Assembly (NCBI GenBank): GCA_017480745.1
Contig: JAFUSA010000008.1
Location: 86,090-150,089, forward strand
DNA length: 64,000 nucleotides
Direction of reading: 5' to 3'
Origin: Alphaproteobacteria bacterium
GTDB taxonomy: Bacteria > Pseudomonadota > Alphaproteobacteria > RF32 > CAG-239
A program made the translations under genes and the position numbers. A model generated the notes under the pieces. That model saw only the letters and a list, made by a program, of their open reading frames with translations, was not told the origin of the DNA and made no database searches. Positions 3,276 through 57,687 of the stretch are shown one piece after another (positions within the stretch are counted from its first letter, which is position 1; each line of letters opens with the position of its first letter).

Positions 3276-3487
3276 TTGACTTTGAATTTTTTTGTGATAT
3301 AGTGAGCATAAGATGAGGTAACTTGTCTGAGGTATCCTAACCTCTCTAACAGCGTCTTTTAGGGCGTAAATTTTTCCGGCCACGGTCGGAAGGTCGCAAA
3401 ATGAAGCAGTGTGCGAATATGCGACACTATTCTGTTAGATAGTTAGGAACTTCCGGCCGTCTTGTCTGAGGCGGTTGTTTTTTTAAC
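3276..3487 (+). promoter_or_regulatory. Class A structured leader (promoter + ~190-nt RNA + terminator hairpin) upstream of a non-pilin ORF
   Basis: TTGACT 3276-3281, 16-nt spacer, TGaTATAGT ending at 3303. Conserved blocks gatgaggtaacttgtctgaggt..acctc, ttccggcc/ggtcggaagg, gtcgca..tgcgac, actat..atagt, then acttccggccgtc..gaggcgg + T-run 3478-3485. Confidence 0.75.
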
Positions 3488-3515
3488 AACAAAAGAGCAA
3501 AAAAGGAAAATAACG

Positions 3516-3791
3516 ATGACTTTTGATGTTGAACACACTTATGACGGAACAGTTAAAGTTCGTCGTCATTATGATTTTTACACAACAGTGGAAATTAAGG
3601 AACGAGATTATCAATTTGTTTTATGCTGGCATTTTTTGGATGAAAAACAAAAAGAACAAGTTTTGCAATATATTCGCCAAATAAGCGATAACAAATTTCC
3701 GTTTCGCGATACATCTCAATACCCGCCATTTAAGCCGAAAAAATACCTTAAAACTCTGTTGAGTATGGCTGATTTATTCCATTGGATGTGA
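3516..3791 (+). CDS. Hypothetical small protein (91 aa)
   Basis: ATG at 3516 is preceded by aaaagga. The track's upstream extension (3462) overlaps the leader terminator, so I trimmed it. No recognisable domain. Confidence 0.55.
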   Translation: MTFDVEHTYDGTVKVRRHYDFYTTVEIKERDYQFVLCWHFLDEKQKEQVLQYIRQISDNKFPFRDTSQYPPFKPKKYLKTLLSMADLFHWM

Positions 3792-14775: not shown

Positions 14776-15516
14776 TCAGTCAACCCAATCCATATCCCAC
14801 TCTTCTGAATTAGGATCAATATCGAAATGAAAGGATATAGCTGTATCATCAGGATCTGATTCTATAACTTCTGAACATTTTTCCGTAATTTTATCTACAG
14901 GAATCGGAAAAGATTTGAAGTAATAACCAATATCACTATACAAAAGAACTGCACTAACATTTGCTGATGTCCAATCTTGACTCAACAGTTCAATACATGC
15001 TTCTTCATTATCTCCAATGTAGTAATCAAGACTAAACGCCTGATTATCACCGCTTTTGGATTTAATTGTCGGACCTAACACAACCCCGTAACCAAAAGGA
15101 TTGGTAATAGACATAATCTTACCATCAGTTACAGTAATCATTTCATCAGGGAATATTTTGGCTTTTTTAACTATCGGACAGCCATTGTAAGCAGATTTGC
15201 CTGCATTATAGTCATAACATTGACAACCGGAAGCGGGGCAAGTGCCATCCTTACTACTACAATCCGCCCCTTCATAATTTCCCTGTGGTCCCCAAAAGGC
15301 ACGCACATTGCCGGCAATGAGAGTTATCTGTTCAATAGTTTTGTTAATACGATATTTCATCATCGCTTTTGAATATCCGGCGATTCCGCCAACACTCAAA
15401 ACACCAATTATAGCCAGCACGCCCAACATCTCAATCATTGAGCGACCGCTCTGTGCATTTTTCGTCATTGCGAGCGCAGCGTGGCAATCTATATTTTTTA
15501 TCTCTAAGTTTCTCAT
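14776..15516 (-). CDS. Prepilin-like protein, paralog 1 (class III signal peptide, G|RSMIEML)
   Basis: MRNLEIKNIDCHAALAMTKNAQSG|RSMIEMLGVLAIIGVLSVGGIAGYSKAMMKYRINKTIEQITLIAGNVRAFW. Glu at +5, hydrophobic helix, conserved EACIEL..DW, and a C-terminal Cys. Confidence 0.8.
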   Translation of the reverse strand: MRNLEIKNIDCHAALAMTKNAQSGRSMIEMLGVLAIIGVLSVGGIAGYSKAMMKYRINKTIEQITLIAGNVRAFWGPQGNYEGADCSSKDGTCPASGCQCYDYNAGKSAYNGCPIVKKAKIFPDEMITVTDGKIMSITNPFGYGVVLGPTIKSKSGDNQAFSLDYYIGDNEEACIELLSQDWTSANVSAVLLYSDIGYYFKSFPIPVDKITEKCSEVIESDPDDTAISFHFDIDPNSEEWDMDWVD

Positions 15517-16940: not shown

Positions 16941-17027
16941 GCGCTTGTGGCGGAATCGGTAGACGCTGCAGACTTAAAATCTGTTGGGATTTATCCCGTG
17001 CCAGTTCAAGTCTGGCCTAGCGCACCA
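16941..17027 (+). tRNA. tRNA-Leu (anticodon UAA), CCA encoded
   Basis: 87 nt. Acceptor gcgcttg/ctagcgc, anticodon loop cuUAAaa, long variable arm, T arm gccag-ttcaagt-ctggc. Confidence 0.9.
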
Positions 17028-17133: not shown

Positions 17134-17220
17134 TGGTGCCCTGAAGAAGACTCGAACTTCCACTGCCTGAGGCAACATGCACCTGAAGCATGCGCGTCTA
17201 CCAATTCCGCCATCAGGGCA
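17134..17220 (-). tRNA. tRNA-Leu (anticodon CAG), CCA encoded
   Basis: Reverse complement tgccctgatggcggaattggtagacgcg-catgc-ttCAGgt-gcatg..., long variable arm, ends in ...gggcacca. Confidence 0.9.
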
Positions 17221-18028: not shown

Positions 18029-18260
18029 AAAAAAACTAACCGCCAAACGGCGGTCGGGAGAGGTAGAAAATCATATTAGTTGAAATGATTTCTGTGATCT
18101 TTAGACAATAGCCCTGTACATCCACCACAGACTCCCCAACCCACGTCGGAGATATTTCACATTCAATAACGATGTCAAAAACACCGCAACTAATAAGAGC
18201 TTTCTACAGCTCCGAACCGAAGTTCTAAGTTTATATTATCACAAAAAATCTAAAAGTCAA
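18029..18260 (-). promoter_or_regulatory. Class B structured leader of pilin paralog 2
   Basis: Minus strand: TTGACT (18260-18255), 16-nt spacer, TGaTAATAT. gaac-ttcg-gttc hairpin, atatctccgacgtgggttggggag, ctgtg..cacag, ctctcccgaccgccgtttggcggt + T-run. Confidence 0.75.
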
Positions 18261-18347
18261 AATATTTTTATCAGTATTTTTAACATTTTATTGAGTATTT
18301 TATTTTATAATGTCAGCCATTGCAAAACAGTATTTTTGAGGGAATTG

Positions 18348-21083
18348 ATGGCTAAGAAAAAAATAATAGAAGAAAAAAAAACACCGTGGTGGAAAACCGC
18401 TTTATGCAATATTTTCGGTATATTTTTTATTGTTTTTCCGTTGCTTGTTTATGCCGGATTGTCAGATTATCATGCGTCCGATCCCTCGTTTAATAAAGTT
18501 ACATCCGAAGAGGTGCAAAATTTTCTTGGGAAATTCGGTGCGTATAGCGCAGATTTTGTGTTAAGCTCATTTGGATTATCTTTGATTATCTTTTTGTTGG
18601 TGCCGATTTTTTGGGGTATCGGACTATTGAAATTTAAAAGCTTCAGCGAATATAAAAGCCGTATTTTTGCGTGGATTGTTGGTGTTTTATGTCTTGCCTG
18701 CTTTATTGATGTTGCTTGCAGTTCTTACATTGCAAGTCTGAACTTGCCGCATAATCTGACCGGAGATTGGAGTCATATAATCAGCCGATGGCTCAATAAT
18801 TATATCAATCAGGTTTCATTCCCTTATAATTCATTGATTATAAAATCTATAATTTTGTTTGTCAGTTTTTTGGCTTTCAATTTTTCTTCCGGCATAACAT
18901 TTAGTGTATGGGTAAAAATGTTTGGCAAAATAGGCGGTTTTTGCAAATCCGTTTACGCCGTATGTGTAAAAATATTCAAAAAAGCTGCCAATATTCGCAA
19001 CTTCAACGAGTTTCAAGAGCTAAATCCGCGCTATTTGCAAGAGAAGATAAAAAATAATTCTGCGCAAAAACATCAGAATGAACCAAAATTTGAAGAACAT
19101 GAAATCAATTTTGCTCCCAGTCTCAATGCTTCATCTTCACACAACATCAGTGTCACTCCGTTAACCGATGCGCTATTAGCACCAAGCATGAGTCTTAATT
19201 CTCAACCGACAAAATCCGCTTCTGTTTCCGGTTTAACCATAGAAATTCCGCAGTTCAATAATTCCGTTAATGATGTTTCTTCTCTAAACATAAACAAAAA
19301 TTCGTTAAATACCGAGCAAAACATTTTGACTCCTACTTTTGATTTTATGATTGATAGTGTAGAGGAAAATCCGTTGCCTAAAAAAGCAGAGAGCAAAGCC
19401 ACCACAAATAATATTTATCAAATTGACGGAGTTAAGAAATTTGTCAGCAAAATGCGCTCAAAAAATAAATCTGCCGATACAGCACAACAAGATGATTTAT
19501 TAACCGTTCCGACCTCGGCAACTGCTCCGCAGAAACCGTTGCAGGCACAGGTTGCTTTTAATGATTCGACAGCGATAGAAAAAAGCAAAGATGAATATGT
19601 TTTTCCGGATATTAATTTGCTTTCTGTTCCGCAAAATAAGGAAATTGAAATTGACGAAGAAGTATTAAAGAAAAATGCCGCACAGTTAGAACAGGTTTTG
19701 CAAGACTTTGGCATTCGCGGACAAATAGTTAAAGTTCGTCCCGGTCCGGTGGTTACACTTTATGAACTTGAACCGGCTCCGGGAATCCGCACAGCCAGAG
19801 TTATCGGTCTTTCAGATGATATAGCGCGTTCTATGGCGGTTGCTTCGGTGCGTATGGCGGTTGTTAGCGGACAAAAGACAATAGGTATTGAATTGCCTAA
19901 CTCGATTCGCCAAACTGTCGGCTTGCGAGAGCTTTTAGAAAGTAAAGATTTCAGAAACAGTAAAAATATTTTAAATGTTGCATTAGGTAAAGATATCGGT
20001 GGGCAGTATGTTTATGCAGATTTAGCCGGAATGCCGCATTTGTTGGTTGCCGGAACAACCGGTTCAGGTAAGTCGGTTGGTGTTAACTCAATGATTTTAT
20101 CTCTTCTTTACCGAATGACACCGGAGCAATGCAAATTTATTATGATTGACCCGAAATGCGTTGAGTTTTCTATGTATAATGGTATACCACATCTGCTTAC
20201 GCCGGTAATTACCGATCCGGCAAAGGCGGTGGTTGGCTTAAAATGGGCAGTGCAGGAAATGGAAAGCCGCAACCGTTCGTTGGCGCTGTTAAATGTGCGC
20301 AATATAAGCGGATATAACCGAAAAATTGAAGAAATCGCAAAATCTTCCAAAGAATTTAAAAAGACTATTCAAACCGGCTTTGACAAGGAAACAGGTAATC
20401 CTATTTATGAAGAACAGGTTATTGATACAACCCCAATGCCATACATAGTGATTGTGGTTGATGAAATGGCAGATTTAATGTTAGTTGCCGGAAAAGAGGT
20501 TGAAGCGGCAATTCAACGTTTGGCTCAAATGGGACGTGCGGTGGGTATTCACTTGATTATGGCCACACAACGTCCGTCGGTTGACGTTATTACCGGTGTG
20601 ATTAAAGCCAACTTCCCAAGCCGCATAAGCTTTCATGTGACTAACAAATTTGACAGCACAACCATTATCGGTGAAAAAGGAGCAGAACAATTGCTTGGAC
20701 GTGGTGATATGTTGTTTGTAGCCTCGGGAGATAAGCCACGGCGTGTTCACGGTTGTTTTGTGCCGGATGATGAAGTGGAAAAAATTGTTGAATTCATCAA
20801 AAAACAGGGTGAGCCTAAATATGTGGCAGAAGTTACTGCCGGTGAACTCAACAGTAAAGATTCCGGTCCGGTATTTGACAAAGGAGAAATGGGAGATGCC
20901 GGAGAAGATCTATATAGGCAAGCGGTGGACATTGTGCGCACAGATAAAAAAGCTTCCACCAGTTATGTTCAACGTAAACTGCGTATAGGATATAATCGTG
21001 CCGCAAACCTGATCGAACGTATGGAAGATGAAGGAATTGTCAGTCATCCGGATCATGTCGGTCGCCGTGAAGTCATCGGATAA
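18348..21083 (+). CDS. ftsK: DNA translocase FtsK
   Basis: N-terminal TM domain, low-complexity linker, motor domain with GTTGSGKSVGVN Walker A, and a C-terminal gamma (winged-helix) domain YVQRKLRIGYNRAANLIE. Confidence 0.95.
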   Translation: MAKKKIIEEKKTPWWKTALCNIFGIFFIVFPLLVYAGLSDYHASDPSFNKVTSEEVQNFLGKFGAYSADFVLSSFGLSLIIFLLVPIFWGIGLLKFKSFSEYKSRIFAWIVGVLCLACFIDVACSSYIASLNLPHNLTGDWSHIISRWLNNYINQVSFPYNSLIIKSIILFVSFLAFNFSSGITFSVWVKMFGKIGGFCKSVYAVCVKIFKKAANIRNFNEFQELNPRYLQEKIKNNSAQKHQNEPKFEEHEINFAPSLNASSSHNISVTPLTDALLAPSMSLNSQPTKSASVSGLTIEIPQFNNSVNDVSSLNINKNSLNTEQNILTPTFDFMIDSVEENPLPKKAESKATTNNIYQIDGVKKFVSKMRSKNKSADTAQQDDLLTVPTSATAPQKPLQAQVAFNDSTAIEKSKDEYVFPDINLLSVPQNKEIEIDEEVLKKNAAQLEQVLQDFGIRGQIVKVRPGPVVTLYELEPAPGIRTARVIGLSDDIARSMAVASVRMAVVSGQKTIGIELPNSIRQTVGLRELLESKDFRNSKNILNVALGKDIGGQYVYADLAGMPHLLVAGTTGSGKSVGVNSMILSLLYRMTPEQCKFIMIDPKCVEFSMYNGIPHLLTPVITDPAKAVVGLKWAVQEMESRNRSLALLNVRNISGYNRKIEEIAKSSKEFKKTIQTGFDKETGNPIYEEQVIDTTPMPYIVIVVDEMADLMLVAGKEVEAAIQRLAQMGRAVGIHLIMATQRPSVDVITGVIKANFPSRISFHVTNKFDSTTIIGEKGAEQLLGRGDMLFVASGDKPRRVHGCFVPDDEVEKIVEFIKKQGEPKYVAEVTAGELNSKDSGPVFDKGEMGDAGEDLYRQAVDIVRTDKKASTSYVQRKLRIGYNRAANLIERMEDEGIVSHPDHVGRREVIG

Positions 21084-21121
21084 GCCGAACAATCCTTTTT
21101 TTATAAAAACTGTTTGAATAA

Positions 21122-21186
21122 GTTACACTATTTAACCTAAAATAGCTATGAACTTCCGGCCGCCTCAGTGGGCGGTTGTTTTTATA
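21122..21186 (+). terminator. Terminator after ftsK, made from a 3' fragment of a class A leader
   Basis: cactatttaacctaaaatag + gaacttccggccgcctcagtgggcggttgttttt matches the last hairpin, third segment and terminator of class A leaders. Confidence 0.7.
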
Positions 21187-25714: not shown

Positions 25715-25940
25715 AATTTTGACCGCCACTGGCGGTCGGAGAGTTTACAAATCATACCACATCAATGATCCTGCTAATCTTTAGGTAAACTACCCTGAAC
25801 ATCCACTAACAGCTCCCCGACCAAATCGGAGATATATCATCTGTCAACGACGTTTTTTCCACGTCGAATGCGGTATGAGCTTGTAAAGGCTCTGAACCGA
25901 AGTTCTGAATTTATGATAACATAAAAAATGAAAAAGTCAA
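25715..25940 (-). promoter_or_regulatory. Class B structured leader of pilin paralog 3
   Basis: Minus strand: TTGACT (25940-25935), 16-nt spacer, TGtTATCAT. gaac-ttcg-gttc, cgacgt..acgtcg, tctccgatttggtcggggag, ctgttag..ttagcag, ctctccgaccgccagtggcggtc. The U-tract after the last hairpin is poor in this copy. Confidence 0.7.
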
Positions 25941-27082: not shown

Positions 27083-27772
27083 TTAACATCCATCAGGTAA
27101 TGAACAGCGATTTAGTTCTTTTTGCCAATAGGTGGAACTTTGCTGGATATCAAATAAAAAACTTATAGTTACCTGATCAAGATCAGAACAAACATTTATG
27201 GCATCATCAATGGCTATCGGAGGCAATAGATAATACTCCGGTTCTTCTCCATTTGTCTTTATGTTATAAGCATATATAATAGAAGCAAGACTAAGTGATG
27301 TCCAATCTTGTGTCAGCAATTCAATACAAACTTCTTCATTATGTGTAAACAATCCTATTCTAAAAGCCTTCTCATCTCCCTCGCTTATCTTATCCGCAGC
27401 TGCCAGAGCAACACCATCTCCCCAAACATCTTTAATGTAATTATAATCACCATCCCACATTTCATCGGGCACAAGTTTGGCTTTTTTAATAACCTTTTTA
27501 TCATCCAATCCAGCATAGTTTCCTTGCGGAGCAAAAAACGAGCGTATGTTTCCGGCAATGAGAGTTATTTGTTCAATGGTTTTGTTGATCCTATACTTAG
27601 TCATCGCCTTTGAATATCCGGCGATTCCGCCAACAGAAAGCACGCCGATGATGGCAAGAACGCCTAACATCTCTATCATAGAGCGACCGCATTGCGTGGC
27701 AAAGCGACACTTATAGTCATGCCTGTGCATGTTAATAATTTCTTTGATACTTTTTATATCTAAGTTTTTCAT
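27083..27772 (-). CDS. Prepilin-like protein, paralog 4 (29-aa presequence)
   Basis: MKNLDIKSIKEIINMHRHDYKCRFATQCG|RSMIEMLGVLAIIGVLSVGGIAGYSKAMTKYRINKTIEQITLIAGNIRSFF...VCIELLTQDW. Confidence 0.8.
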   Translation of the reverse strand: MKNLDIKSIKEIINMHRHDYKCRFATQCGRSMIEMLGVLAIIGVLSVGGIAGYSKAMTKYRINKTIEQITLIAGNIRSFFAPQGNYAGLDDKKVIKKAKLVPDEMWDGDYNYIKDVWGDGVALAAADKISEGDEKAFRIGLFTHNEEVCIELLTQDWTSLSLASIIYAYNIKTNGEEPEYYLLPPIAIDDAINVCSDLDQVTISFLFDIQQSSTYWQKELNRCSLPDGC

Positions 27773-30797: not shown

Positions 30798-31430
30798 ATG
30801 AGAAACTTAGAAATTAAAAATCAAAATGGCCGTAGTATGATAGAGATGCTTGGCGTGCTTGCCATAATCGGCGTGCTTTCTGTGGGCGGAATTGCCGGAT
30901 ACAGCAAAGCAATGCAAAAGTATAAAATCAATAAAACCATTGAACAAATAACTCTCATTGCCGGTAATATACGTGCTTTCTTTGCTAATCAACCCGAAGG
31001 AACTAAATACACGGATTTATATTCCGAAGGCGAAAAAGCACAAATACTAAAAAAAGCGAGGTTAATTCCTGATGAAATGTGGAATGGATCTAAAATAGAA
31101 AATATTTTTGGAGGTGCGACATACATTAGTTATTTGGGTACATCTGGTAATATTGATTATAGAAGTTTTCTCATTAATTTAGGAAACATACCACAAGAAG
31201 CTTGTATTGAACTTTTAACACATGATTGGAGCGCATCAGGAGTATATGTTATGGGTAATGTGAGTGCATTAGCTTATGGTGCTAAGGCAAGTCATGATAA
31301 TTGCGAAACAAAGGAAATTATGAGTGGACCTTATTCGTTTGGCTATACATATTGTGGTACATCAATGCCCATGGAAACAGCAATAGAATTTTGTAAGGAG
31401 GTAACAGATTTTTATTTAGGATTCCATTAA
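30798..31430 (+). CDS. Prepilin-like protein, paralog 5
   Basis: MRNLEIKNQNG|RSMIEMLGVLAIIGVLSVGGIAGYSKAMQKYKINKTIEQITLIAGNIRAFF...EACIELLTHDW. Confidence 0.8.
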   Translation: MRNLEIKNQNGRSMIEMLGVLAIIGVLSVGGIAGYSKAMQKYKINKTIEQITLIAGNIRAFFANQPEGTKYTDLYSEGEKAQILKKARLIPDEMWNGSKIENIFGGATYISYLGTSGNIDYRSFLINLGNIPQEACIELLTHDWSASGVYVMGNVSALAYGAKASHDNCETKEIMSGPYSFGYTYCGTSMPMETAIEFCKEVTDFYLGFH

Positions 31431-35236: not shown

Positions 35237-35980
35237 TTATCTGAAATAAAAGTGTAATTCAGCGTCATCAGAACAAGTGCTTGCGGCTTTATCAACGCTT
35301 ATCGGTAATGTTTTGTTGTAAATACAGCCAACATTATCATCATCCCAATAATCTCCCGTTACACAATCAAACATTACAGCACTGTCATCTTCATTTATTG
35401 CCAGAGCTATTAAATCGCTGACAGACCAATCATGTGTGGATAGTTCAATACAGGCTTCTTGCGGTAAACCATAAAGGGTTATCTTATAGCCCGTCACTGT
35501 TTTACTTCCGTTGCTGCCCCAATAATCGTAAATATAAACCGCACCACCAAAAGCATTGGTTATATTCGTGATATTACCGTCGGAATCTAATGTCAGCATT
35601 TCATCGGGTACAAGTTTGGCTTTTTTGATAATTGCTTTTCCTGTATCAGAATACGAAGATAATCCGTCATAATTTCCTTGCGGGCCGAAGAATGCCCGAA
35701 CATTACCGGCGATTAAAGTTATTTGCTCAATAGTTTTATTGATGCGATACTTTTGCATTGCCTTTGAATATCCGGCGATTCCGCCAACAGATAACACGCC
35801 GATGATGGCAAGAACACCAAGCATTTCTATCATTGAGCGACCATTCTGTCCGCCCTCAACATTTTGCACTTCTTTTGAGTTAAACAAAGCATTGCAATAA
35901 ATATTCTGCGGAGCGAACGAATGTTCGCGACCTGATGCGTTAGCATCACAAATAGTTTGTTTGAAATTACAATTTCCCAT
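35237..35980 (-). CDS. Prepilin-like protein, paralog 6 (46-aa presequence)
   Basis: MGNCNFKQTICDANASGREHSFAPQNIYCNALFNSKEVQNVEGGQNG|RSMIEMLGVLAIIGVLSVGGIAGYSKAMQKYRINKTIEQITLIAGNVRAFF...EACIELSTHDW. Confidence 0.78.
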   Translation of the reverse strand: MGNCNFKQTICDANASGREHSFAPQNIYCNALFNSKEVQNVEGGQNGRSMIEMLGVLAIIGVLSVGGIAGYSKAMQKYRINKTIEQITLIAGNVRAFFGPQGNYDGLSSYSDTGKAIIKKAKLVPDEMLTLDSDGNITNITNAFGGAVYIYDYWGSNGSKTVTGYKITLYGLPQEACIELSTHDWSVSDLIALAINEDDSAVMFDCVTGDYWDDDNVGCIYNKTLPISVDKAASTCSDDAELHFYFR

Positions 35981-36301: not shown

Positions 36302-36531
36302 TTGACATTTTAAAATTTTGTGATATAGTAATCACAGAACTACGGTTCGGGGCTTTCATCGGCTCTCATTACGCTTGGTGTGTAAAAAACACTATCATAA
36401 GGTATGTAATATCTCCGATTGGGTCGGGGAGACTGCAATGGATGTTCAGAGCTTTTGCTTAAAGATTGTAGTGATTATTAGCGTAATGTAATTGATGAAC
36501 TCCCCTGCCGCCGTTTGGCGGTTAAATTTTT
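36302..36531 (+). promoter_or_regulatory. Class B structured leader of pilin paralog 7
   Basis: TTGACA 36302-36307, 16-nt spacer, TGaTATAGT (-10 at 36324-36329). gaac-tacg-gttc, atatctccgattgggtcggggag, ctgcaa..ttgtag, actcccctgccgccgtttggcggt + T-run. Confidence 0.75.
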
Positions 36532-41981: not shown

Positions 41982-42050
41982 ATTGCTAAAATAACACAAA
42001 AATTTTTCTTGTTTTGTTTGTTATATTTTTGCGGATTTTGCAAAAAGTGG

Positions 42051-42257
42051 TTGACTTTTGAGCTTTTTATGATATAGTAAAAGCAAGATGAGGTAACTTG
42101 TCTGAGGTGTCAGAACCTCTTGCAATTCGTCTTAAAGACGTAAAAATTTCCGGCTTTGTGGCCGGAAGGTCGTGGAATAAAACTATAGGTTGAATATGCG
42201 GCACTATTAATTGCAGTAGTTCTGAACTTCCGGCCGCCCTTATCGGGTGGTTGTTTT
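42051..42257 (+). promoter_or_regulatory. Class A structured leader of pilin paralog 8 (reference copy)
   Basis: TTGACT 42051-42056, 16-nt spacer, TGaTATAGT (-10 at 42073-42078). Segment 1 ttccggc 42148-42154, segment 2 gccggaagg 42161-42169, segment 3 cttccggcc 42227-42235. Terminator cggccgccc/gggtggttg + tttt to 42257. Confidence 0.78.
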
Positions 42258-42292
42258 AGTGTAATATCAACAAAAATGAAAGGAAGTTTACT

Positions 42293-42970
42293 ATGAAAAA
42301 CTTAGAAATAAAAAATCAAAACGGTCGTTCAATGATAGAGATGTTAGGTGTTCTTGCCATCATCGGTGTTTTGAGTGTCGGTGGAATCGCCGGATATTCC
42401 AAAGCTATGCAAAAATATAGAATTAACAAAACCATTGAGCAAATAACACTTATTACCGGAAACGTTCGCTCATTTTTTGCCAGTCAAGGAAATTATAGGG
42501 GATTAAGTTCAACTAATACAGGAAAAGCGATTATCAAAAAAGCTAAACTTGTACCTGATGAAATGTTAGAGCTCAATGCCGATGGTACCATAAAGCAAAT
42601 TAACAACTCTTTCGGCGGAACGGTTTTGATTGAAGCTGCTAATAAATCAAGTTCAGCTAATGGAAGTGAGCCTATATACATTTATGGTGATGAAAAAGCT
42701 TTTGCTTTATCTTTCAGCGATATTCCGCAGGAGGCCTGTATTGAATTGGTAACACAAGATTGGAGCGAGGCCAACATCGGAGCCCTCCAAAAAGGAGGTT
42801 TTATTCCTACTAAGAATAATGTAATTTTTACACCGGCAAGCATCGATATCGCCACGAATATGTGTGGTTCTACAAATGAAATATCTTTTTTTGCTGATGT
42901 TGATACTAATTCCACTTATTGGAAAGGTCTTTTGGGTGATGAAAAGTTGGTGGGTACTATCGGTAATTAG
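42293..42970 (+). CDS. Prepilin-like protein, paralog 8
   Basis: MKNLEIKNQNG|RSMIEMLGVLAIIGVLSVGGIAGYSKAMQKYRINKTIEQITLITGNVRSFF...EACIELVTQDW...NMCG. Confidence 0.8.
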   Translation: MKNLEIKNQNGRSMIEMLGVLAIIGVLSVGGIAGYSKAMQKYRINKTIEQITLITGNVRSFFASQGNYRGLSSTNTGKAIIKKAKLVPDEMLELNADGTIKQINNSFGGTVLIEAANKSSSANGSEPIYIYGDEKAFALSFSDIPQEACIELVTQDWSEANIGALQKGGFIPTKNNVIFTPASIDIATNMCGSTNEISFFADVDTNSTYWKGLLGDEKLVGTIGN

Positions 42971-47754: not shown

Positions 47755-48348
47755 ATGGAAAAAGACGAATTACAGAATTTTTTAATTAACATAGGGCGCT
47801 CTATGGTGCAGGAAAACGGCACAGATGCGCTGACAGTGCGCAAATTGTCCGAAGCTTCCAAATGCTCGGTCGGCGCCATATATAACCAGTTTTCCAATAT
47901 GGATAACTATATCGTGATCCAAAATTGCATAACTCTTGATGAGTTACACGCTGCTTTAAGCAAAGTGCAACGTTCCAACAACGTGTTCATCGATATGAAT
48001 AATTATTTGCAGACTTTTGTTGACTATGTTTTGGATAATAAAAATTTATGGTATATGCTTTATACCTTTCACTTGAAACATAATAAATATCGCTATTCAT
48101 CATTTTATTTGCGCAAAATAATAAAAATTGTGCGTATTGTTAATGAGCTGCTAAAAGATGCCACTCCGCGAGTTGAAAGACCTGAACGTCTGCTTTCGGC
48201 TCAGGTTTTATGGCTGACAATGTTTTCACTCAGCGCCTTGCTCACTAAGGATATTTTAGACTCTTTTTCCAAAATCAATCGCCGCAATTTGTGTGAAATT
48301 GTTTTGAATACTTTTGTTGCCGGTATGACTGTGCTGGAAAATAGGTAA
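47755..48348 (+). CDS. TetR-family transcriptional regulator
   Basis: N-terminal HTH: GTDALTVRKLSEASKCSVGAIYNQF. Confidence 0.8.
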   Translation: MEKDELQNFLINIGRSMVQENGTDALTVRKLSEASKCSVGAIYNQFSNMDNYIVIQNCITLDELHAALSKVQRSNNVFIDMNNYLQTFVDYVLDNKNLWYMLYTFHLKHNKYRYSSFYLRKIIKIVRIVNELLKDATPRVERPERLLSAQVLWLTMFSLSALLTKDILDSFSKINRRNLCEIVLNTFVAGMTVLENR

Positions 48349-48360
48349 TTTTTAAACAAA

Positions 48361-48546
48361 GCGCTCGCCGACGTGTTGAAAGCTACCTAATAGAATAGTG
48401 TCGCATATTATACAATTTATTCTGCGACCTTCCGACCATTGTCGGAAACATTTTACGTCCTGTCTGACGCTATTAGAGAGGCTTTCAAACCTCAGACAAG
48501 TTACCTCATCTTACTTAGATACTATCACAAAAAATGTAAAAGTCAA
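48361..48546 (-). ncRNA. Orphan class A leader-like RNA with promoter but no downstream gene
   Basis: Minus strand: TTGACT (48546-48541), 16-nt spacer, TGaTAGTAT. Then gatgaggtaacttgtctgaggtttgaaagcctc, cgtc..gacg, tttccgacaatggtcggaagg, gtcgca..tgcgac, cactatt. The 3' part diverges and runs into the convergent tetR stop. Confidence 0.6.
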
Positions 48547-48618
48547 ACTTTTTTTCGTAGTCAAACACAAAATTATGGCGCGCTATAATTTGTGCTTATA
48601 CACCAAATCATAAAAGTC

Positions 48619-50859: not shown

Positions 50860-51651
50860 TTAATACCACGTTACTCCCAGATCAGCGGCTTCCTTCTTAT
50901 AAAAACTTTCATCTGCATCAAAAAATAAAGATACACTTGTACTAATTACATCATCTTCAGGATCGACGTACGCATATGAACATATGTTGACAGCATTATC
51001 AATAGATATTGGTAAAGAAAAACTTGCTTTATCTATAGTTTGCAAGTTATTTACCGAAATAAAACTGACATTTGCGTTAGTCCAGTCATGTGTTAAAAGT
51101 TCTATACAAGCTTCTACGTTATTTCCTATGTCATACGTAACATCAAATGCTTGATCTTCACTATTAAATGATTTATAATTTGCATTTAATACAACTTTTC
51201 CACCAAAAACATTTTCCAAAGCCGTTTTGTCACTATTCCACATTTCATCAGGGACTAATTTAGCTTTGTGTATTATTTTTCTGCCATTAGTTTCATTGCT
51301 ATTCAATCCTTTATAATTCCTCTGCGGAGCAAAAAATGTTCGCACATTGCCGGCAATTAAAGTTATTTGCTCAATAGTTTTGTTGATGCGATATTTGGTC
51401 ATTGCTTTGCTGTATCCGGCGATTCCGCCAACCGAAAGAACGCCAATAATTGCCAACACGCCAAGCATTTCAATCATTGAACGTCCGCTCTGCGTGGCAA
51501 AACCACACTTATAGTCATGCCTCGATTCCGCAGGAATCGTCAAGTCATCTTCTGCTTGATTAAAATTAATTTGAAGATCCCTTGACGCATTCGCCTTTGC
51601 AAGGCTCTGCGAGGGATGACTTTTTATATTTTTTATTTTTAAGTTATTCAT
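50860..51651 (-). CDS. Prepilin-like protein, paralog 9 (56-aa presequence)
   Basis: MNNLKIKNIKSHPSQSLAKANASRDLQINFNQAEDDLTIPAESRHDYKCGFATQSG|RSMIEMLGVLAIIGVLSVGGIAGYSKAMTKYRINKTIEQITLIAGNVRTFF...EACIELLTHDW. Confidence 0.78.
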   Translation of the reverse strand: MNNLKIKNIKSHPSQSLAKANASRDLQINFNQAEDDLTIPAESRHDYKCGFATQSGRSMIEMLGVLAIIGVLSVGGIAGYSKAMTKYRINKTIEQITLIAGNVRTFFAPQRNYKGLNSNETNGRKIIHKAKLVPDEMWNSDKTALENVFGGKVVLNANYKSFNSEDQAFDVTYDIGNNVEACIELLTHDWTNANVSFISVNNLQTIDKASFSLPISIDNAVNICSYAYVDPEDDVISTSVSLFFDADESFYKKEAADLGVTWY

Positions 51652-51689: not shown

Positions 51690-51895
51690 AAAACAACCGC
51701 CCGATAAAGGCGGCCGGAAGTTGACGACTATTTAAGATTAGATAGTGTGGCTTATTTGGTTCACCCTTATTCAACCACCTTCCAGCCATACTGGAAAATT
51801 TTTACGTCTTCAAAGACGACTTCAAAGAGGTTTTCAGACCTCAGACAAGTTACCTTATCTTGTTTTCACTATATCATAAAAAACGCAAAAGTCAA
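51690..51895 (-). promoter_or_regulatory. Class A structured leader of pilin paralog 9
   Basis: Minus strand: TTGACT (51895-51890), 16-nt spacer, TGaTATAGT. The gtggtt/aagccac stem is compensatory relative to gtcgca/tgcgac. Terminator ggccgcctttatcgggcggttgtttt. Confidence 0.75.
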
Positions 51896-56550: not shown

Positions 56551-57420
56551 CTACTTAAAACCCAATATAATCTCGCAAGTATCTTCTGTGCACGAACATG
56601 CGGCAACAGCTTTTTCCAGTGGAAGCGGCAAAGTATTTCCCGCTGGACAAAAATACCTATCATCTTCCGCGGTACAATCATTATCCGCGACATTAGCCAT
56701 ATCTCCGTCCAACGTTTCATTGATATACATACCTACAACATTTGCGGCTTGCCAATCATGACTGGCTATCTCAATACAGGCTTCTGCCGGTAAATATGCT
56801 ATGCTTATGCCAAAAGCTGTAAAACCATTAGTTACATTCTCCGATAATACAACCCCACCACCGAAGGGATTGGTAATAGCGGTAATTTTTTTACCGGTAG
56901 AATCAAGAGTAATCATTTCATCCGGTAATATCTTGGCTTTTTTTATTATCGGACAGCCATTGACAGTAGAAGTAGGATAGCCGCTGCTGCTAACACCGCC
57001 ATCACTTCCCTTACATCCGTTGGTTGCATTGCAGGTATAACCACTACAATTAACCCCGATATAGTTCTTCTGTGGTCCCCAGAAAGCACGCACATTGCCG
57101 GCAATTAATGTTATTTGCTCAATAGTTTTATTGATGCGATACTTTTGCATTGCCTTACTATATCCGGCTATTCCGCCAACGCTTAATACGCCGATTATAG
57201 CCAGTACGCCTAACATCTCGATCATTGAACGACCAGACTGCGGCGCATCTGCACCACTCTCCGCAAGAGGTGAACATCCACTCTGTTCACTTTTTGCATC
57301 AAGCACTTCTTTTGCAGTTAAAAACGTATTGCAACAAATATTCCATGGAGCGGATGAAAATCCGCGACCCGGCGCACCAGCGCCGTTAATGTTTTGTTTA
57401 GAATTTATATTTCTCATCAT
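56551..57420 (-). CDS. Prepilin-like protein, paralog 10 (63-aa presequence)
   Basis: MMRNINSKQNINGAGAPGRGFSSAPWNICCNTFLTAKEVLDAKSEQSGCSPLAESGADAPQSG|RSMIEMLGVLAIIGVLSVGGIAGYSKAMQKYRINKTIEQITLIAGNVRAFW...EACIEIASHDW. Confidence 0.78.
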   Translation of the reverse strand: MMRNINSKQNINGAGAPGRGFSSAPWNICCNTFLTAKEVLDAKSEQSGCSPLAESGADAPQSGRSMIEMLGVLAIIGVLSVGGIAGYSKAMQKYRINKTIEQITLIAGNVRAFWGPQKNYIGVNCSGYTCNATNGCKGSDGGVSSSGYPTSTVNGCPIIKKAKILPDEMITLDSTGKKITAITNPFGGGVVLSENVTNGFTAFGISIAYLPAEACIEIASHDWQAANVVGMYINETLDGDMANVADNDCTAEDDRYFCPAGNTLPLPLEKAVAACSCTEDTCEIILGFK

Positions 57421-57449: not shown

Positions 57450-57687
57450 AAAAATCAAAGGCCACCAAACGGTGGCAGGGGAGTTTACAAATCATAGAGT
57501 TTAAAATGATCCGCGCAATTTTTAGGCACAAACCCTGAACATTTACCACGCGCTCCCCGACCAAGTCGGAGATATTCATCATATCTTTAACGATGTTAAA
57601 AAAATTAACACCGTAAACTCTAAGAGCTTGTAAAGGCCCTGAACCGAAGTTCTGTTTCTATAATATCATAGAATTTTAAAAAGTCAA
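57450..57687 (-). promoter_or_regulatory. Class B structured leader of pilin paralog 10
   Basis: Minus strand: TTGACT (57687-57682), 16-nt spacer, TGaTATTAT. gaac-ttcg-gttc, tgttaa..ttaaca, atatctccgacttggtcggggag, gcgcg..tgcgc, actcccctgccaccgtttggtggc + T-run. Confidence 0.75.

Follow-up and report, generated by a model that had tools for sequence, protein, structure and literature searches.

The DNA at 42051-42295 of the 64-kb window (the whole stretch of DNA that was analysed) encodes what we judge, with a probability of about 60%, to be a self-promoted, cis-acting RNA of ~175 nt that would set read-through into a surface-protein gene by transcription attenuation. This leader RNA is predicted to start at the hairpin P0 and to end at an intrinsic terminator. 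Its apparent relatives are the phage c4 and sRNA-Xcc1 antisense RNAs, of which it would be a chromosomal form that acts in cis. The elements of the 42051 copy are as follows.

42051..42078, plus strand: sigma-70-type promoter, with -35 TTGACT (42051-42056), a 16-nt spacer containing TG, and -10 TATAGT (42073-42078)
42086..42103, plus strand: P0, the 5'-terminal hairpin, AGAUGAG-GUAA-CUUGUCU; 93% of cells are paired, and each of the 7 pairs varies on both sides
42104..42119, plus strand: P1 hairpin, GAGGU / ACCUC, 92% paired and mostly invariant; its loop GUCAGA(AC) is site a1, the 5' strand of pseudoknot PK1, complementary to 42219-42225
42121..42127, plus strand: site b1, the 5' strand of pseudoknot PK2, UGCAAUU, in the P1-P2 linker
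42128..42146, plus strand: P2 hairpin, CGUC-UUAAA-GACG; the A-rich UAAAAA junction on its 3' side is conserved
42147..42168, plus strand: P3, in which seg1 UUUCCGGC (42147-42154) pairs with seg2 GCCGGAAG (42161-42168)
42169..42202, plus strand: P4, GUCGUG / UGCGGC, 99% paired, with covariation at 6 of 6 pairs
42203..42220, plus strand: P5 hairpin, ACUAU / GUAGU, in which one pair is AU in 86 and GC in 28 sequences
42209-42215, plus strand: site b', the 3' strand of PK2, AAUUGCA, in the P5 loop
42221..42225, plus strand: site a', the 3' strand of PK1, UCUGA, extendable to GUUCUGA (42219-42225), between P5 and seg3
42227..42235, plus strand: seg3, CUUCCGGCC, the partner of seg2 (42160-42168) in helix S23
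42232..42257, plus strand: predicted intrinsic terminator, GGCCGCCC-UUAUC-GGGUGGUU, followed by GUUUU
42282..42295, plus strand: RBS GGAAGU (42282-42287) and start codon (ATG, 42293) of the gene for a type IVb-like pilin, 42293-42970

We infer the start site (approximately 42084-42086), termination and read-through from the sequence. The promoter matches 10 of 12 consensus positions in addition to the TG, and the -35/-10 pattern ends 5-8 nt 5' of P0 in 86 of 104 family members. At the other end, a terminator-like hairpin with its T-run spans 42231-42257; the terminator stem is 95.2% paired, all eight of its pairs covary, and the T-run follows it in 102 of 104 members. A GC-rich hairpin and U-run, as looked for in an attenuator, are thus present between the promoter and the start codon. 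The downstream pilin gene has Pfam matches to PilS, Bundlin and N_methyl, and this pilin of the window finds matches solely on ENA metagenome contigs. Its RBS, GGAAGU(U), is complementary to the (A)ACUUCC of seg3, and GGAAGT is present upstream of 55% of leader-associated genes, compared with 7.7% of background ORFs. A leader peptide was considered and rejected, in that the AUG-AGG-UAA inside P0 of the window copies is not conserved in other genomes.

The window holds eight copies of this type (class A) and one 3' fragment, and the window alone contains two classes of the leader family. The copies other than the one described above are as follows, with the bit scores of the covariance model R1.

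3310..3481, plus strand: class A copy with its promoter at 3276, upstream of a small non-pilin ORF (ATG 3516); 180 bits
15557..15729, minus strand: class A copy upstream of the pilin gene 14776-15516(-) (Pfam); 168.7 bits
27811..27983, minus strand: class A copy upstream of the pilin gene 27083-27772(-) (Pfam); 177.3 bits
30596..30766, plus strand: class A copy upstream of the pilin gene 30798-31430(+); 155.2 bits
36016..36187, minus strand: class A copy upstream of the pilin gene 35237-35980(-); 184.2 bits
48355..48512, minus strand: truncated class A copy that keeps the promoter and P0 to P5; 130.3 bits
51690..51861, minus strand: class A copy upstream of the pilin gene 50860-51651(-); 160 bits
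21122..21186, plus strand: 3' fragment with the P4 3' arm, P5, seg3 and the terminator; 34.7 bits

The alignment of all eight copies covers ~210 nt with a mean column identity of 72%, the core pattern GGAAGGT..RAAT..AATA..CRCTRT matches exactly these eight sites in the window (chance expectation 0), and the seven full copies score 155-184 bits with R1. All three results bear out the number and places of the copies given in the initial annotation, which had also set them before pilin genes. The latter holds for six of the eight: the 3276 copy precedes the non-pilin ORF, and the truncated copy, which has lost seg3 and the terminator, is without a downstream gene. The fragment lies directly 3' of the stop codon of ORF 18291-21083. 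Individual copies also differ in informative ways. The 36016 copy is a near-twin of the 42085 copy (42051 with its promoter), from which a compensated change in PK1 separates it; the 30596 copy carries a CCAG / CUGG / CCAG variant in seg1, seg2 and seg3 alike; and the 51690 copy is the sole one with both pseudoknots broken (self-complementarity of 3 + 3 nt), with its downstream pilin gene intact.

Further copies were collected by a pattern scan of public genomes combined with the covariance model. Approximately 110 are found in metagenome-assembled genomes (MAGs) of gut and rumen Alphaproteobacteria, with a maximum of 29 per MAG, and R1 gives 123 matches over the window and 99 loci. Nearly all of the related loci are in MAGs of Alphaproteobacteria, on which ground an origin in Elusimicrobium, suggested by GC content and the abundance of pilin genes, was rejected. 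Five other loci (L051, L060, L080, L087 and L089, e.g. Methylotuvimicrobium) have no model match and were set aside as chance pattern matches. Members of the family precede pilin, lipoprotein, outer-membrane-protein, glycosyltransferase and fimbrial-like genes, some of which we take to be DUF4402-like fimbrial genes, and a leader specific to pilins, as originally supposed, is not what the family shows.

Covariation was evaluated on 122 distinct sequences from many MAGs. Both sides change in 50 of the 55 tested pairs, 95.2% of cells are paired compared with 73.8% in shuffles, and the covariation score is 0.623, against 0.233 for shuffles and 0.05-0.09 for slid partners, which strongly supports the initial claim of a functional RNA structure in the 5' leader rather than a mere DNA repeat. 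P1 to P5 and the GC-rich terminator hairpin proposed from the window sequence are all present, and the compensatory variants gtcatg/catgac, gtggtt/agccac and cgct/ggcg had been read correctly. That list of hairpins lacked P0, the two long-range pseudoknots and the putative antiterminator helix S23, and with it the choice among P3, S23 and the terminator. P2 is 96% paired and all four of its pairs covary. P3 is 95.6% paired and contains many G-U pairs. Within P4, the internal loop GAAUAA...GAAUA is conserved, and the small hairpin at the apex is variable. An RNAalifold consensus of seven window copies fuses PK1 with a GAGG:CUUC extension and omits P1 and P5. This extension shows zero compensatory changes over the 122 sequences, compared with a few in the local P1, and P1 and P5 were therefore retained and the long-range helices taken as pseudoknots.

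The two pseudoknots, a1/a' and b1/b', differ in sequence copy by copy. PK1 is 99.3% paired, with four pair types at three central positions, and PK2 is 98.6% paired and shows 4-6 pair types at each position; the b1 site has 96 distinct sequences among 105 members. The mean perfect Watson-Crick complementarity within a copy is 6.75 nt at the a site and 7.44 nt at the b site, compared with 3.0 and 2.9 nt between copies, and both sites reach at least 6 nt in 82% of self comparisons and in 0.1% of non-self comparisons. In the MAG with 29 copies, no pair of copies cross-matches at both sites.

The leader contains a second level of organization, in which one purine-rich strand has two partners. Seg2 (GCCGGAAGG) pairs with seg1 to form P3 or with seg3 (CUUCCGGC) to form S23, which uses G42160 in addition to the seg2 residues of P3. 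In 106 of 112 members, S23 has a length of 9-11 bp. It is 98.9% paired, with covariation at 3 positions, in an alignment that was not fitted to it; together with P4 and P5, it forms a three-way junction that it closes. S23 also overlaps the 5' arm of the terminator, by 4 nt in the 42051 copy and by 4-6 nt in the family. Because seg2 is common to P3 and S23, and because S23 takes part of the 5' arm of the terminator, P3, S23 and the terminator exclude one another, and each of these helices is conserved and covaries. In an energy model without pseudoknots, S23 is more stable than P3 in a transcript ending at seg3, by a median of 4.4 kcal/mol and in 86% of members, whereas in the full leader P3 with the terminator is favoured by a median of 12.6 kcal/mol. 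As modelled, these opposite preferences of the seg3-ended and full transcripts are the signature of a kinetically decided switch.

A course of events consistent with these helices may be proposed. P3, the putative anti-antiterminator, would form first in transcription, and the emerging seg3 would then either displace seg1 or nucleate the terminator. If seg1 is displaced, S23 would form as the antiterminator, the terminator would be disabled and the RBS would be left free, so that the gene is on; if it is not, transcription would terminate, and the CUUCC of the free seg3 could also mask the GGAAGU of the RBS, leaving the gene off. The pseudoknots, which fit the P3 state and the S23 state alike, would dock the 5' module onto the junction and probably govern the rate of S23 formation. 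Candidate inputs that might tip the balance are a protein, a small molecule, an RNA acting in trans, and processing by RNase P.

The leader is absent from Rfam 15, and no Rfam family reaches its gathering score; no description of such a pilin-leader RNA was found in the literature, although the supplement of PMC8040213 may list it as a candidate without a name. The initial view of an undescribed family stands to this extent, but relatives exist: the 3' half resembles sRNA-Xcc1 and c4, and the 5' half resembles the a1/b1 module. sRNA-Xcc1 (RF02221) is the only recurrent near-hit in Rfam, at 24-36 bits and always spanning seg2 to seg3. The best scores in the window are 34.3 and 32.8 bits, and other members have 36.1, 26.3, 24.3 and 23.9 bits, relative to a gathering score of 53 and to 65-86 bits for genuine Xcc1 RNAs on the same model. 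A column-by-column alignment to the Xcc1 consensus, in addition to the covariation for S23, P4 and P5, shows that the leader has an Xcc1-type three-way junction. The closing stem of Xcc1 (GGCCGG..GG / CC..CCGGCC) corresponds to S23, its hairpin 1, with the internal loop GAAUA(A/C)AAUA ... GAAUA, to P4, and its hairpin 2 to P5; a further likeness is the junction strand of 6-7 nt, ending in GAAC, that follows hairpin 2.

The likeness extends upstream. In genuine Xcc1 loci, a GAGGC-loop-ACCUC hairpin lies ~100 nt upstream of Xcc1. The loop of this hairpin is complementary to the junction strand of Xcc1, as is its 3' flank to the loop of hairpin 2, and this module resembles the a1/b1 partner module of the leader. 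In an automated two-site search upstream of Xcc1, the best site is 99-108 nt upstream in five of six independent loci, with moderate significance per locus (3 to 45 of 300 shuffles are as good). R1 gives no significant detection on the Xcc1 loci, the best score being 9.6 bits; in one of them (L117), it nonetheless aligned the a1b1...b'a' arrangement.

Several differences from Xcc1 are also evident. The two modules of the Xcc1 loci are ~100 nt apart, with a hairpin and U-run between them, whereas they are fused in the leader, and the leader alone adds seg1 with P3 and an intrinsic terminator overlapping the closing stem. The 5' end of Xcc1 is the first base of its closing stem, whereas a conserved promoter lies ~75 nt upstream of S23, so that the primary transcript of the leader, which may be processed at S23, would be longer than the ~88 nt of Xcc1, for which mapping gave a free small RNA of 88 nt (PMC2996969). 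Xcc1 has been described on integron cassettes, upstream of symE (bioRxiv 10.1101/2025.06.18.660453), and other Xcc1 loci lie upstream of phage ant or KilA-N genes.

The C4 antisense RNA of phages P1 and P7 (RF01695) shares with the leader a closing stem around two hairpins, in addition to an exposed loop (b') and an exposed junction strand (a') complementary to the adjacent upstream sites a1 and b1 of the same transcript. The a1/b1 sites constitute the c4-a1b1 motif of Weinberg 2010 (PMC2864571), and the sequence specificity of C4 lies in its a and b sites (PMC5320573). The Rfam C4 model finds no match at E values up to 10 in 42000-42320 or up to 1 in the whole window; a true C4, at 74 bits, is present in L117, in the same ant (antirepressor gene) region as the Xcc1 locus. 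One difference is that c4 uses the target sites a2/b2 over a downstream RBS to repress icd/ant, whereas the leader is without them: within 200 nt downstream, the longest words shared with a1/b1 are no longer than those of permuted pairs. The c4 mechanism is therefore not simply transferable to the leader. Regulation by the leader would apparently proceed through an intrinsic terminator, whereas c4, as Biere is said to have found in 1992, acts by translational repression and then Rho-dependent termination. The contexts differ as well, namely phage immunity for C4 and chromosomal surface-protein genes for the leader.

The multi-copy C4-like "Group 1" sRNAs of Acinetobacter baumannii are comparable in that a phage-type c4 fold is multiplied in a bacterial chromosome. 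They are described as processed, trans-acting small RNAs, the variable a' region of which is proposed to retarget the sRNA (PMC5320573). They differ in not being terminator/antiterminator leaders before specific genes, and a sequence relationship to the leader is not detectable. In light of these comparisons, the leader has the appearance of two phage c4 / sRNA-Xcc1 modules, the a1/b1 hairpin and the c4-like three-way junction, joined together and re-used before pilin, fimbrial-like, lipoprotein and outer-membrane-protein genes.

The expression platforms of riboswitches and attenuators are similar to the leader in a different manner, as three overlapping helices decide intrinsic termination and many copies precede pilus or surface-protein genes. 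One such platform belongs to the c-di-GMP-II riboswitch upstream of C. difficile pilA1, and multi-copy placement before surface genes is typical of c-di-GMP riboswitch regulons. The leader may thus be a new riboswitch class, in which a metabolite or second messenger, for example a cyclic dinucleotide, stabilises P3 or S23 through the pseudoknotted core and controls a surface regulon. The terminator / antiterminator / anti-antiterminator platform, the dozens of copies per genome before surface-type genes, and the compact double-pseudoknot core with its conserved junction UAAAA and AAUA / AAUA loop are consistent with such a class, which we nevertheless regard as unlikely. Rfam scans at E values up to 10 find no match to riboswitch aptamer families, the core of the leader is built of antisense-RNA-type modules, and for its nearest relatives, the antisense RNAs c4 and Xcc1, no ligand is known. 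Copy-specific pseudoknot sequences would be unusual in an aptamer. Additionally, conserved nucleotides are rarely unpaired; most invariant positions lie in helices (seg2, seg3 and P5) with several alternative partners, which alone could constrain them.

The likeness to antisense RNAs also raises the question of action in trans. If the leader were primarily the precursor of a c4-like sRNA, cleavage by RNase P immediately 5' of S23 would free the junction, and its a' and b' would target RNAs that have matching sites, in the simplest case the nascent a1/b1 of the same gene, which would give a gene-specific termination feedback. The topology of C4 and Xcc1 (closing stem, two hairpins, exposed loop and junction strand, then CC) is present, and the a + b combinations are unique within the genome, with zero two-site cross-matches in the 29-copy MAG. 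C4 itself matures through RNase P, and its target specificity comes from a' and b' (PMC5320573, which draws on Citron & Schuster 1990 and Hartmann 1995). However, no second matching site is present within 200 nt downstream, and over the whole 64-kb window the copies match exactly at two sites only with themselves (a one-mismatch search gives noise). Pairing in cis already engages a' and b' in the intact leader, and the trailer after the 9-11 bp of S23 is mostly CCU, not RCCA. A precursor of this type is a little less probable than a riboswitch. We give the same low standing to a variant in which the domesticated, fused c4 / a1b1 pair provides an orthogonal RNA "address" for each surface gene: a junction processed, for example, by RNase P would bind the nascent a1/b1 of the same gene, pre-empt the cis pseudoknots and shift the balance of termination and antitermination. 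If true, the outcome would be feedback or bistable switching that is specific to each gene and needs no protein, and through it pilin paralogues could be expressed heterogeneously or variably.

A dedicated RNA-binding protein (of the RAT/BglG, PyrR or NusG-paralogue LoaP/UpxY type) that reads the P5 stem and P4 loop and decides between P3 and S23 is slightly less probable again. Sequence conservation beyond pairing in the P5 stem (CACUAU / AUAGU), S23 and the AAUA loops would fit such a site, and a single regulator could then govern dozens of surface-protein genes, but the copies in the window and in the loci examined have no linked gene for a candidate protein. Finally, a DNA-level repeat (for example, a promoter-bearing cassette boundary that serves pilin-gene recombination) or a constitutive 5' stabiliser or insulator is strongly disfavoured: the copies are scattered amid paralogous pilin genes, and the truncated or chimeric ones (48355, the 21122 fragment and the mismatched 51690 copy) point to inter-copy recombination, but compensatory changes are present in every helix, long-range ones included, b1 is distinct in nearly every member, and a passive stabiliser has no need for three mutually exclusive conserved helices.

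With a cis-acting attenuator as the preferred reading, the leader links the phage c4 immunity RNAs, the "virulence sRNA" Xcc1 and terminator-based leaders, which have so far been treated apart. It also suggests that the Rfam Xcc1 model is only half of a two-module system, of which the a1/b1 hairpin is the other half. The copy-specific and always self-complementary pseudoknots constitute a natural library of orthogonal RNA-RNA interactions, with which the role of a1/b1, a puzzle since the 1990s, can be tested directly. The family is a large one with unusually good covariation support in poorly known, uncultured Alphaproteobacteria of the gut and rumen, and it appears to control much of the surface repertoire of its hosts, including type IVb-like pilins, fimbrial-like proteins, lipoproteins and outer-membrane proteins.

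The initial annotation placed eight class A leaders ahead of pilin genes in the window. These copies align over about 210 nt with a mean column identity of 72%, and a core pattern derived from them finds the same eight sites only in the 64 kb, where none is expected by chance. A covariance model of the leader (R1), trained on the seven full window copies, gives 155-184 bits to these, 130 bits to the truncated copy at 48355-48512(-), and 34.7 bits to a 3' fragment near 21122-21186. In the focal copy (42051-42292(+)), the promoter at 42051-42078 (TTGACT, a 16-nt spacer and TG-n-TATAGT) matches 10 of 12 consensus positions in a promoter scan, a terminator-like hairpin with a T-run is found by scanning at 42231-42257, and single-sequence folding yields a z-score of -5.1 against its own shuffles. 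Every hairpin described initially is present, as are the quoted compensatory variants. The association with pilin genes holds for six copies, whose downstream proteins are type IVb-like pilins (Pfam PilS, Bundlin and N_methyl), but not for the 3276 copy, which precedes a small non-pilin ORF, or the 48361 copy, which has no gene downstream. The irregular copies are as follows.

3310-3791, + strand: class A leader with a 91-aa non-pilin ORF (MTFDVEHTYDGTVKV...); promoter at 3276
48355-48576, - strand: decayed class A copy; promoter and P0 to P5 kept, 3' part lost
21025-21186, + strand: decayed class A copy; only the P4 3' arm, P5, seg3 and the terminator left

The 91-aa ORF has no match in the Pfam scan, and no signal peptide is apparent on reading its sequence by eye. 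Beyond P5, the 48355 copy gives way to unrelated sequence, where a convergent TetR-family gene (47755-48348) ends. The 21122 fragment adjoins the stop of ORF 18291-21083 and may serve as its terminator. Among the pilin paralogues, 14776-15516, 27083-27772, 50860-51651, 56551-57420 and others carry N-terminal extensions of 20-70 residues before a conserved G/RSMIEMLGVLAIIGVL cleavage-type motif, which in other paralogues follows a stretch of just 10 or so residues; mature N-termini are near-identical across paralogues and across metagenome-assembled genomes (MAGs).

A core-pattern scan restricted to a single genome for each species returns at least 110 loci, and the listed loci are nearly all from metagenome-assembled Alphaproteobacteria of gut or rumen (Hadza and Nepali humans, roe deer, rabbit, yak and sheep). 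R1 matches number 123 in the window and 99 of the loci listed. A few loci in unrelated organisms are chance pattern matches, in which R1 finds nothing. In the listed loci, no R1 match exceeds about 113 bits, which indicates that they do not include the genome of the window itself; the window's pilin is found on ENA metagenome contigs only. MAG RGIG4937 carries at least 29 copies among the loci retrieved. A -35/-10 pattern ends 5-8 nt ahead of the first hairpin in 86 of 104 members and a T-run lies 3' of the last hairpin in 102 of 104; by these signals, the element starts where transcription is predicted to start and carries a terminator of its own. Several rabbit-gut MAG loci (L043, L015, L068, L098 and others) form a class A subgroup with an extra hairpin between P2 and P3, in which P3 is only 4-5 bp, the alternative helix S23 (described below) is still 9 bp, and several copies are without an obvious start codon nearby.

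The covariation claimed for the window copies persists when homologs are added. In a set of 122 distinct sequences, 95.2% of cells are in standard pairs, compared with 73.8% in shuffles, 50 of 55 pairs exhibit changes on both sides, and the covariation score is 0.623, compared with 0.233 for shuffles and 0.05-0.09 when the partners are slid by 1-3 columns.

Helices of the class A leader, with the share of cells paired
P0 (5' hairpin, new relative to the initial annotation): 93%; covaries at every pair
P1: 92%; mostly invariant
P2: 96%; covaries at every pair
P3: 95.6%; many G-U pairs
P4: 99%; covaries at every pair
P5: 88-96%; one pair is AU in 86 and GC in 28
Terminator: 95%; covaries at every pair

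The plain series of hairpins proposed initially is incomplete, as two pseudoknots and S23 are also present. The first pseudoknot (PK1) pairs the P1 loop (a1) with the strand immediately 3' of P5 (a'; 99.3% paired), and the second (PK2) pairs the P1-P2 linker (b1) with the P5 loop (b'; 98.6% paired), with four to six pair types at each position. Because the alignment was fitted to these helices, an independent self/non-self test was made. Perfect Watson-Crick complementarity averages 6.75 and 7.44 nt between segments of the same copy, compared with 3.0 and 2.9 nt between different copies, and at least 6 nt at both sites is reached in 82% of self and 0.1% of non-self comparisons. PK2 sequences are highly diverse (96 distinct among 105 members), and no two copies within one genome match at both sites. 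Of about 105 class A copies, only the one at 51690-51861(-) has both pseudoknots broken (a1 CUGAAAAC versus a' GUCGUCAA, with b1 mismatched too); it looks like a recombinant of one copy's 5' module and another's 3' module. Its pilin gene, 50860-51651, encodes a long N-terminal extension ahead of a GRSMIEML motif.

Four weaker R1 matches in the window (18.7-26.9 bits) define a second class, all ahead of pilin genes.

57455-57653, - strand: class B leader
18033-18226, - strand: class B leader
36342-36528, + strand: class B leader
25716-25906, - strand: class B leader

Class B keeps the class A order (promoter, P0, P1, linker, P2, seg1/seg2/seg3, terminator) with different sequences: P0 is GAAC-UUCG-GUUC, seg1 is CUCCGAC, seg2 is GUCGGGGAG (GGGGAG) and seg3 is CUCCCC. 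Its P1 loop can pair with the strand that follows P5, and its linker with the P5 loop. Two sequence classes with one topology argue that selection preserves the fold. Two divergent long-arm tRNA genes (83-84 nt; 16941-17024(+) and 17137-17219(-)) have a class A leader on one side and a class B leader on the other.

In class A, seg2 (GCCGGAAGG), which forms the 3' arm of P3, has a second complementary partner in seg3 (CUUCCGGCC) just ahead of the terminator. The resulting helix, S23, was left out of the fitted model; it is 98.9% paired and covaries at three positions, with a length of 9-11 bp in 106 of 112 members. All three helices (P3, S23 and the terminator) are conserved, and since seg2 is shared and S23 overlaps the terminator 5' arm by 4-6 nt, the three are mutually exclusive. 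Energies were computed with the pseudoknots unscored: for transcripts ending at seg3, with the pseudoknot strands blocked, S23 is favored over P3 in 86% of members (median 4.4 kcal/mol), and with the terminator 3' arm included, the P3 plus terminator state leads by a median of 12.6 kcal/mol. Such a modeled reversal would be expected of an outcome set by kinetics while transcription proceeds.

The RBS GGAAGU, at 42282-42287 in the focal copy, is the complement of seg3 (ACUUCC) and precedes 55% of leader-associated genes, compared with 7.7% of background ORFs. The leader-associated RBS is usually AAGGAAGU rather than AAGGAGGU, off the canonical Shine-Dalgarno at one position, and this deviation makes it complementary to seg3. 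In addition to pilins, the genes served include a large family with the N-terminus MNKYILMLGVAG...ATMTVTATIAHDVSL, which we take to be DUF4402-like or fimbrial, as well as lipoproteins, outer-membrane-protein-like proteins, a glycosyltransferase and an XRE-type regulator.

With its promoter, fold, two pseudoknots, three mutually exclusive conserved helices, terminator and seg3-complementary RBS, the class A leader is probably (about 0.6) a cis-acting transcription attenuator, a functional statement that, like all others here, is based on sequence. P3 would be the first helix to form, and the emerging seg3 may invade it, weak as it is through G-U pairs, to give S23. S23 would close a c4-like junction, disable the terminator and leave the RBS free; without S23, the terminator would form, and in any read-through RNA the unpaired CUUCC of seg3 would mask the RBS. 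The pseudoknots would dock the 5' module onto the junction, beside seg3, and probably thereby set the invasion rate. The rival readings that share the rest of the probability are a riboswitch with a ligand, an effector protein, a trans-acting RNA that RNase P would process and that would feed back on specific genes, and an element with a passive role.

In keeping with the initial annotation, which recognized no described riboswitch or leader family, Rfam scans give no family at threshold for the leader, and it is absent from Rfam 15. No paper describing it was found, and it may be an unnamed candidate in the supplements of large microbiome screens. The sole recurrent family at permissive thresholds is sRNA-Xcc1 (RF02221), always spanning seg2 to seg3 (34.3, 32.8, 36.1, 26.3, 24.3 and 23.9 bits; gathering score 53). 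Xcc1 was mapped in Xanthomonas as an 88-nt small RNA (PMC2996969) and lies upstream of symE in integron cassettes (bioRxiv 10.1101/2025.06.18.660453). It has a three-way junction in common with class A, with a closing stem GGCCGG..GG / CC..CCGGCC, a first hairpin with the internal loop GAAUA(A/C)AAUA ... GAAUA, a second hairpin, and a junction strand whose last bases are GAAC. Genuine Xcc1 RNAs (65-86 bits) occur in Neisseria, Aeromonas, Stx2a phages, Haemophilus phage Aaphi23 and a Pasteurella phage, upstream of antirepressor or KilA-N genes, and one phage carries a bona fide C4 antisense RNA (RF01695; 74 bits) in the same region.

About 100 nt upstream of genuine Xcc1 lies a module with a promoter-like start that resembles the 5' part of the window leader. 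It contains a hairpin with the P1 motif (for example, GAGGC-GUCAGA-ACCUC in locus L117) and with a loop that complements the Xcc1 junction strand; the segment directly after this hairpin is complementary to the hairpin-2 loop. In a crude automated search for the two sites, the best site falls 99-108 nt upstream in 5 of 6 Xcc1 loci; the reverse search of these loci with R1 is not significant, and in L117 it aligns the a1b1...b'a' arrangement. The module and Xcc1 together have the a1/b1 - c4 (a', b') layout of the P1/P7 immunity region. There, c4 RNA is excised by RNase P, and its a' and b' bind target sites, b' occluding an RBS (PMC5320573, which summarizes Citron & Schuster 1990 and Hartmann 1995). 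Weinberg 2010 (PMC2864571) lists the c4-a1b1 motif, which is without an Rfam entry.

On the Aeromonas caviae chromosome (L112; 1386-1404, 1485-1569 and 1590-1616), Xcc1 is accompanied by two pairs of complementary sites. Its junction strand UUCGAAC and hairpin-2 loop GUGUUCA are complementary to an upstream pair, and the second pair, UUCGAAC ... AUGAACAC, overlaps both the start codon and the SD region of the KilA-N gene that lies downstream. This complete a1b1 / c4 / a2b2 layout suggests that Xcc1 is a c4-type cis/trans repressor of ant-like genes. In L111, L112 and L115-L118, a conserved hairpin about 40-100 nt upstream of Xcc1 separates it from the a1/b1 hairpin; the loop carries CCCGUCAG (variants CCGUCAA and CCCGUUAG) and 6-7 U follow, so that it may be a terminator that makes the a1/b1 module a separate short RNA. 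L115 contains two Xcc1 copies, each followed by an antirepressor gene.

By its sub-threshold scores and shared architecture, the class A leader resembles Xcc1 and c4, which would be its homologs. However, its two modules are fused into about 175 nt, an additional segment, seg1, forms P3, and the closing stem overlaps a true intrinsic terminator. It also lacks a2/b2, the downstream target sites through which c4 acts: in the 200 nt downstream, words shared with a1/b1 are no longer for a leader's own gene than for permuted pairs, and the window holds no exact two-site match beyond each copy's own. The building blocks, namely the c4-like RNA, the a1/b1 sites and terminator switching, are already known; their combination and use are new, and unlike c4 and Xcc1, the class A leader serves chromosomal surface-protein genes.
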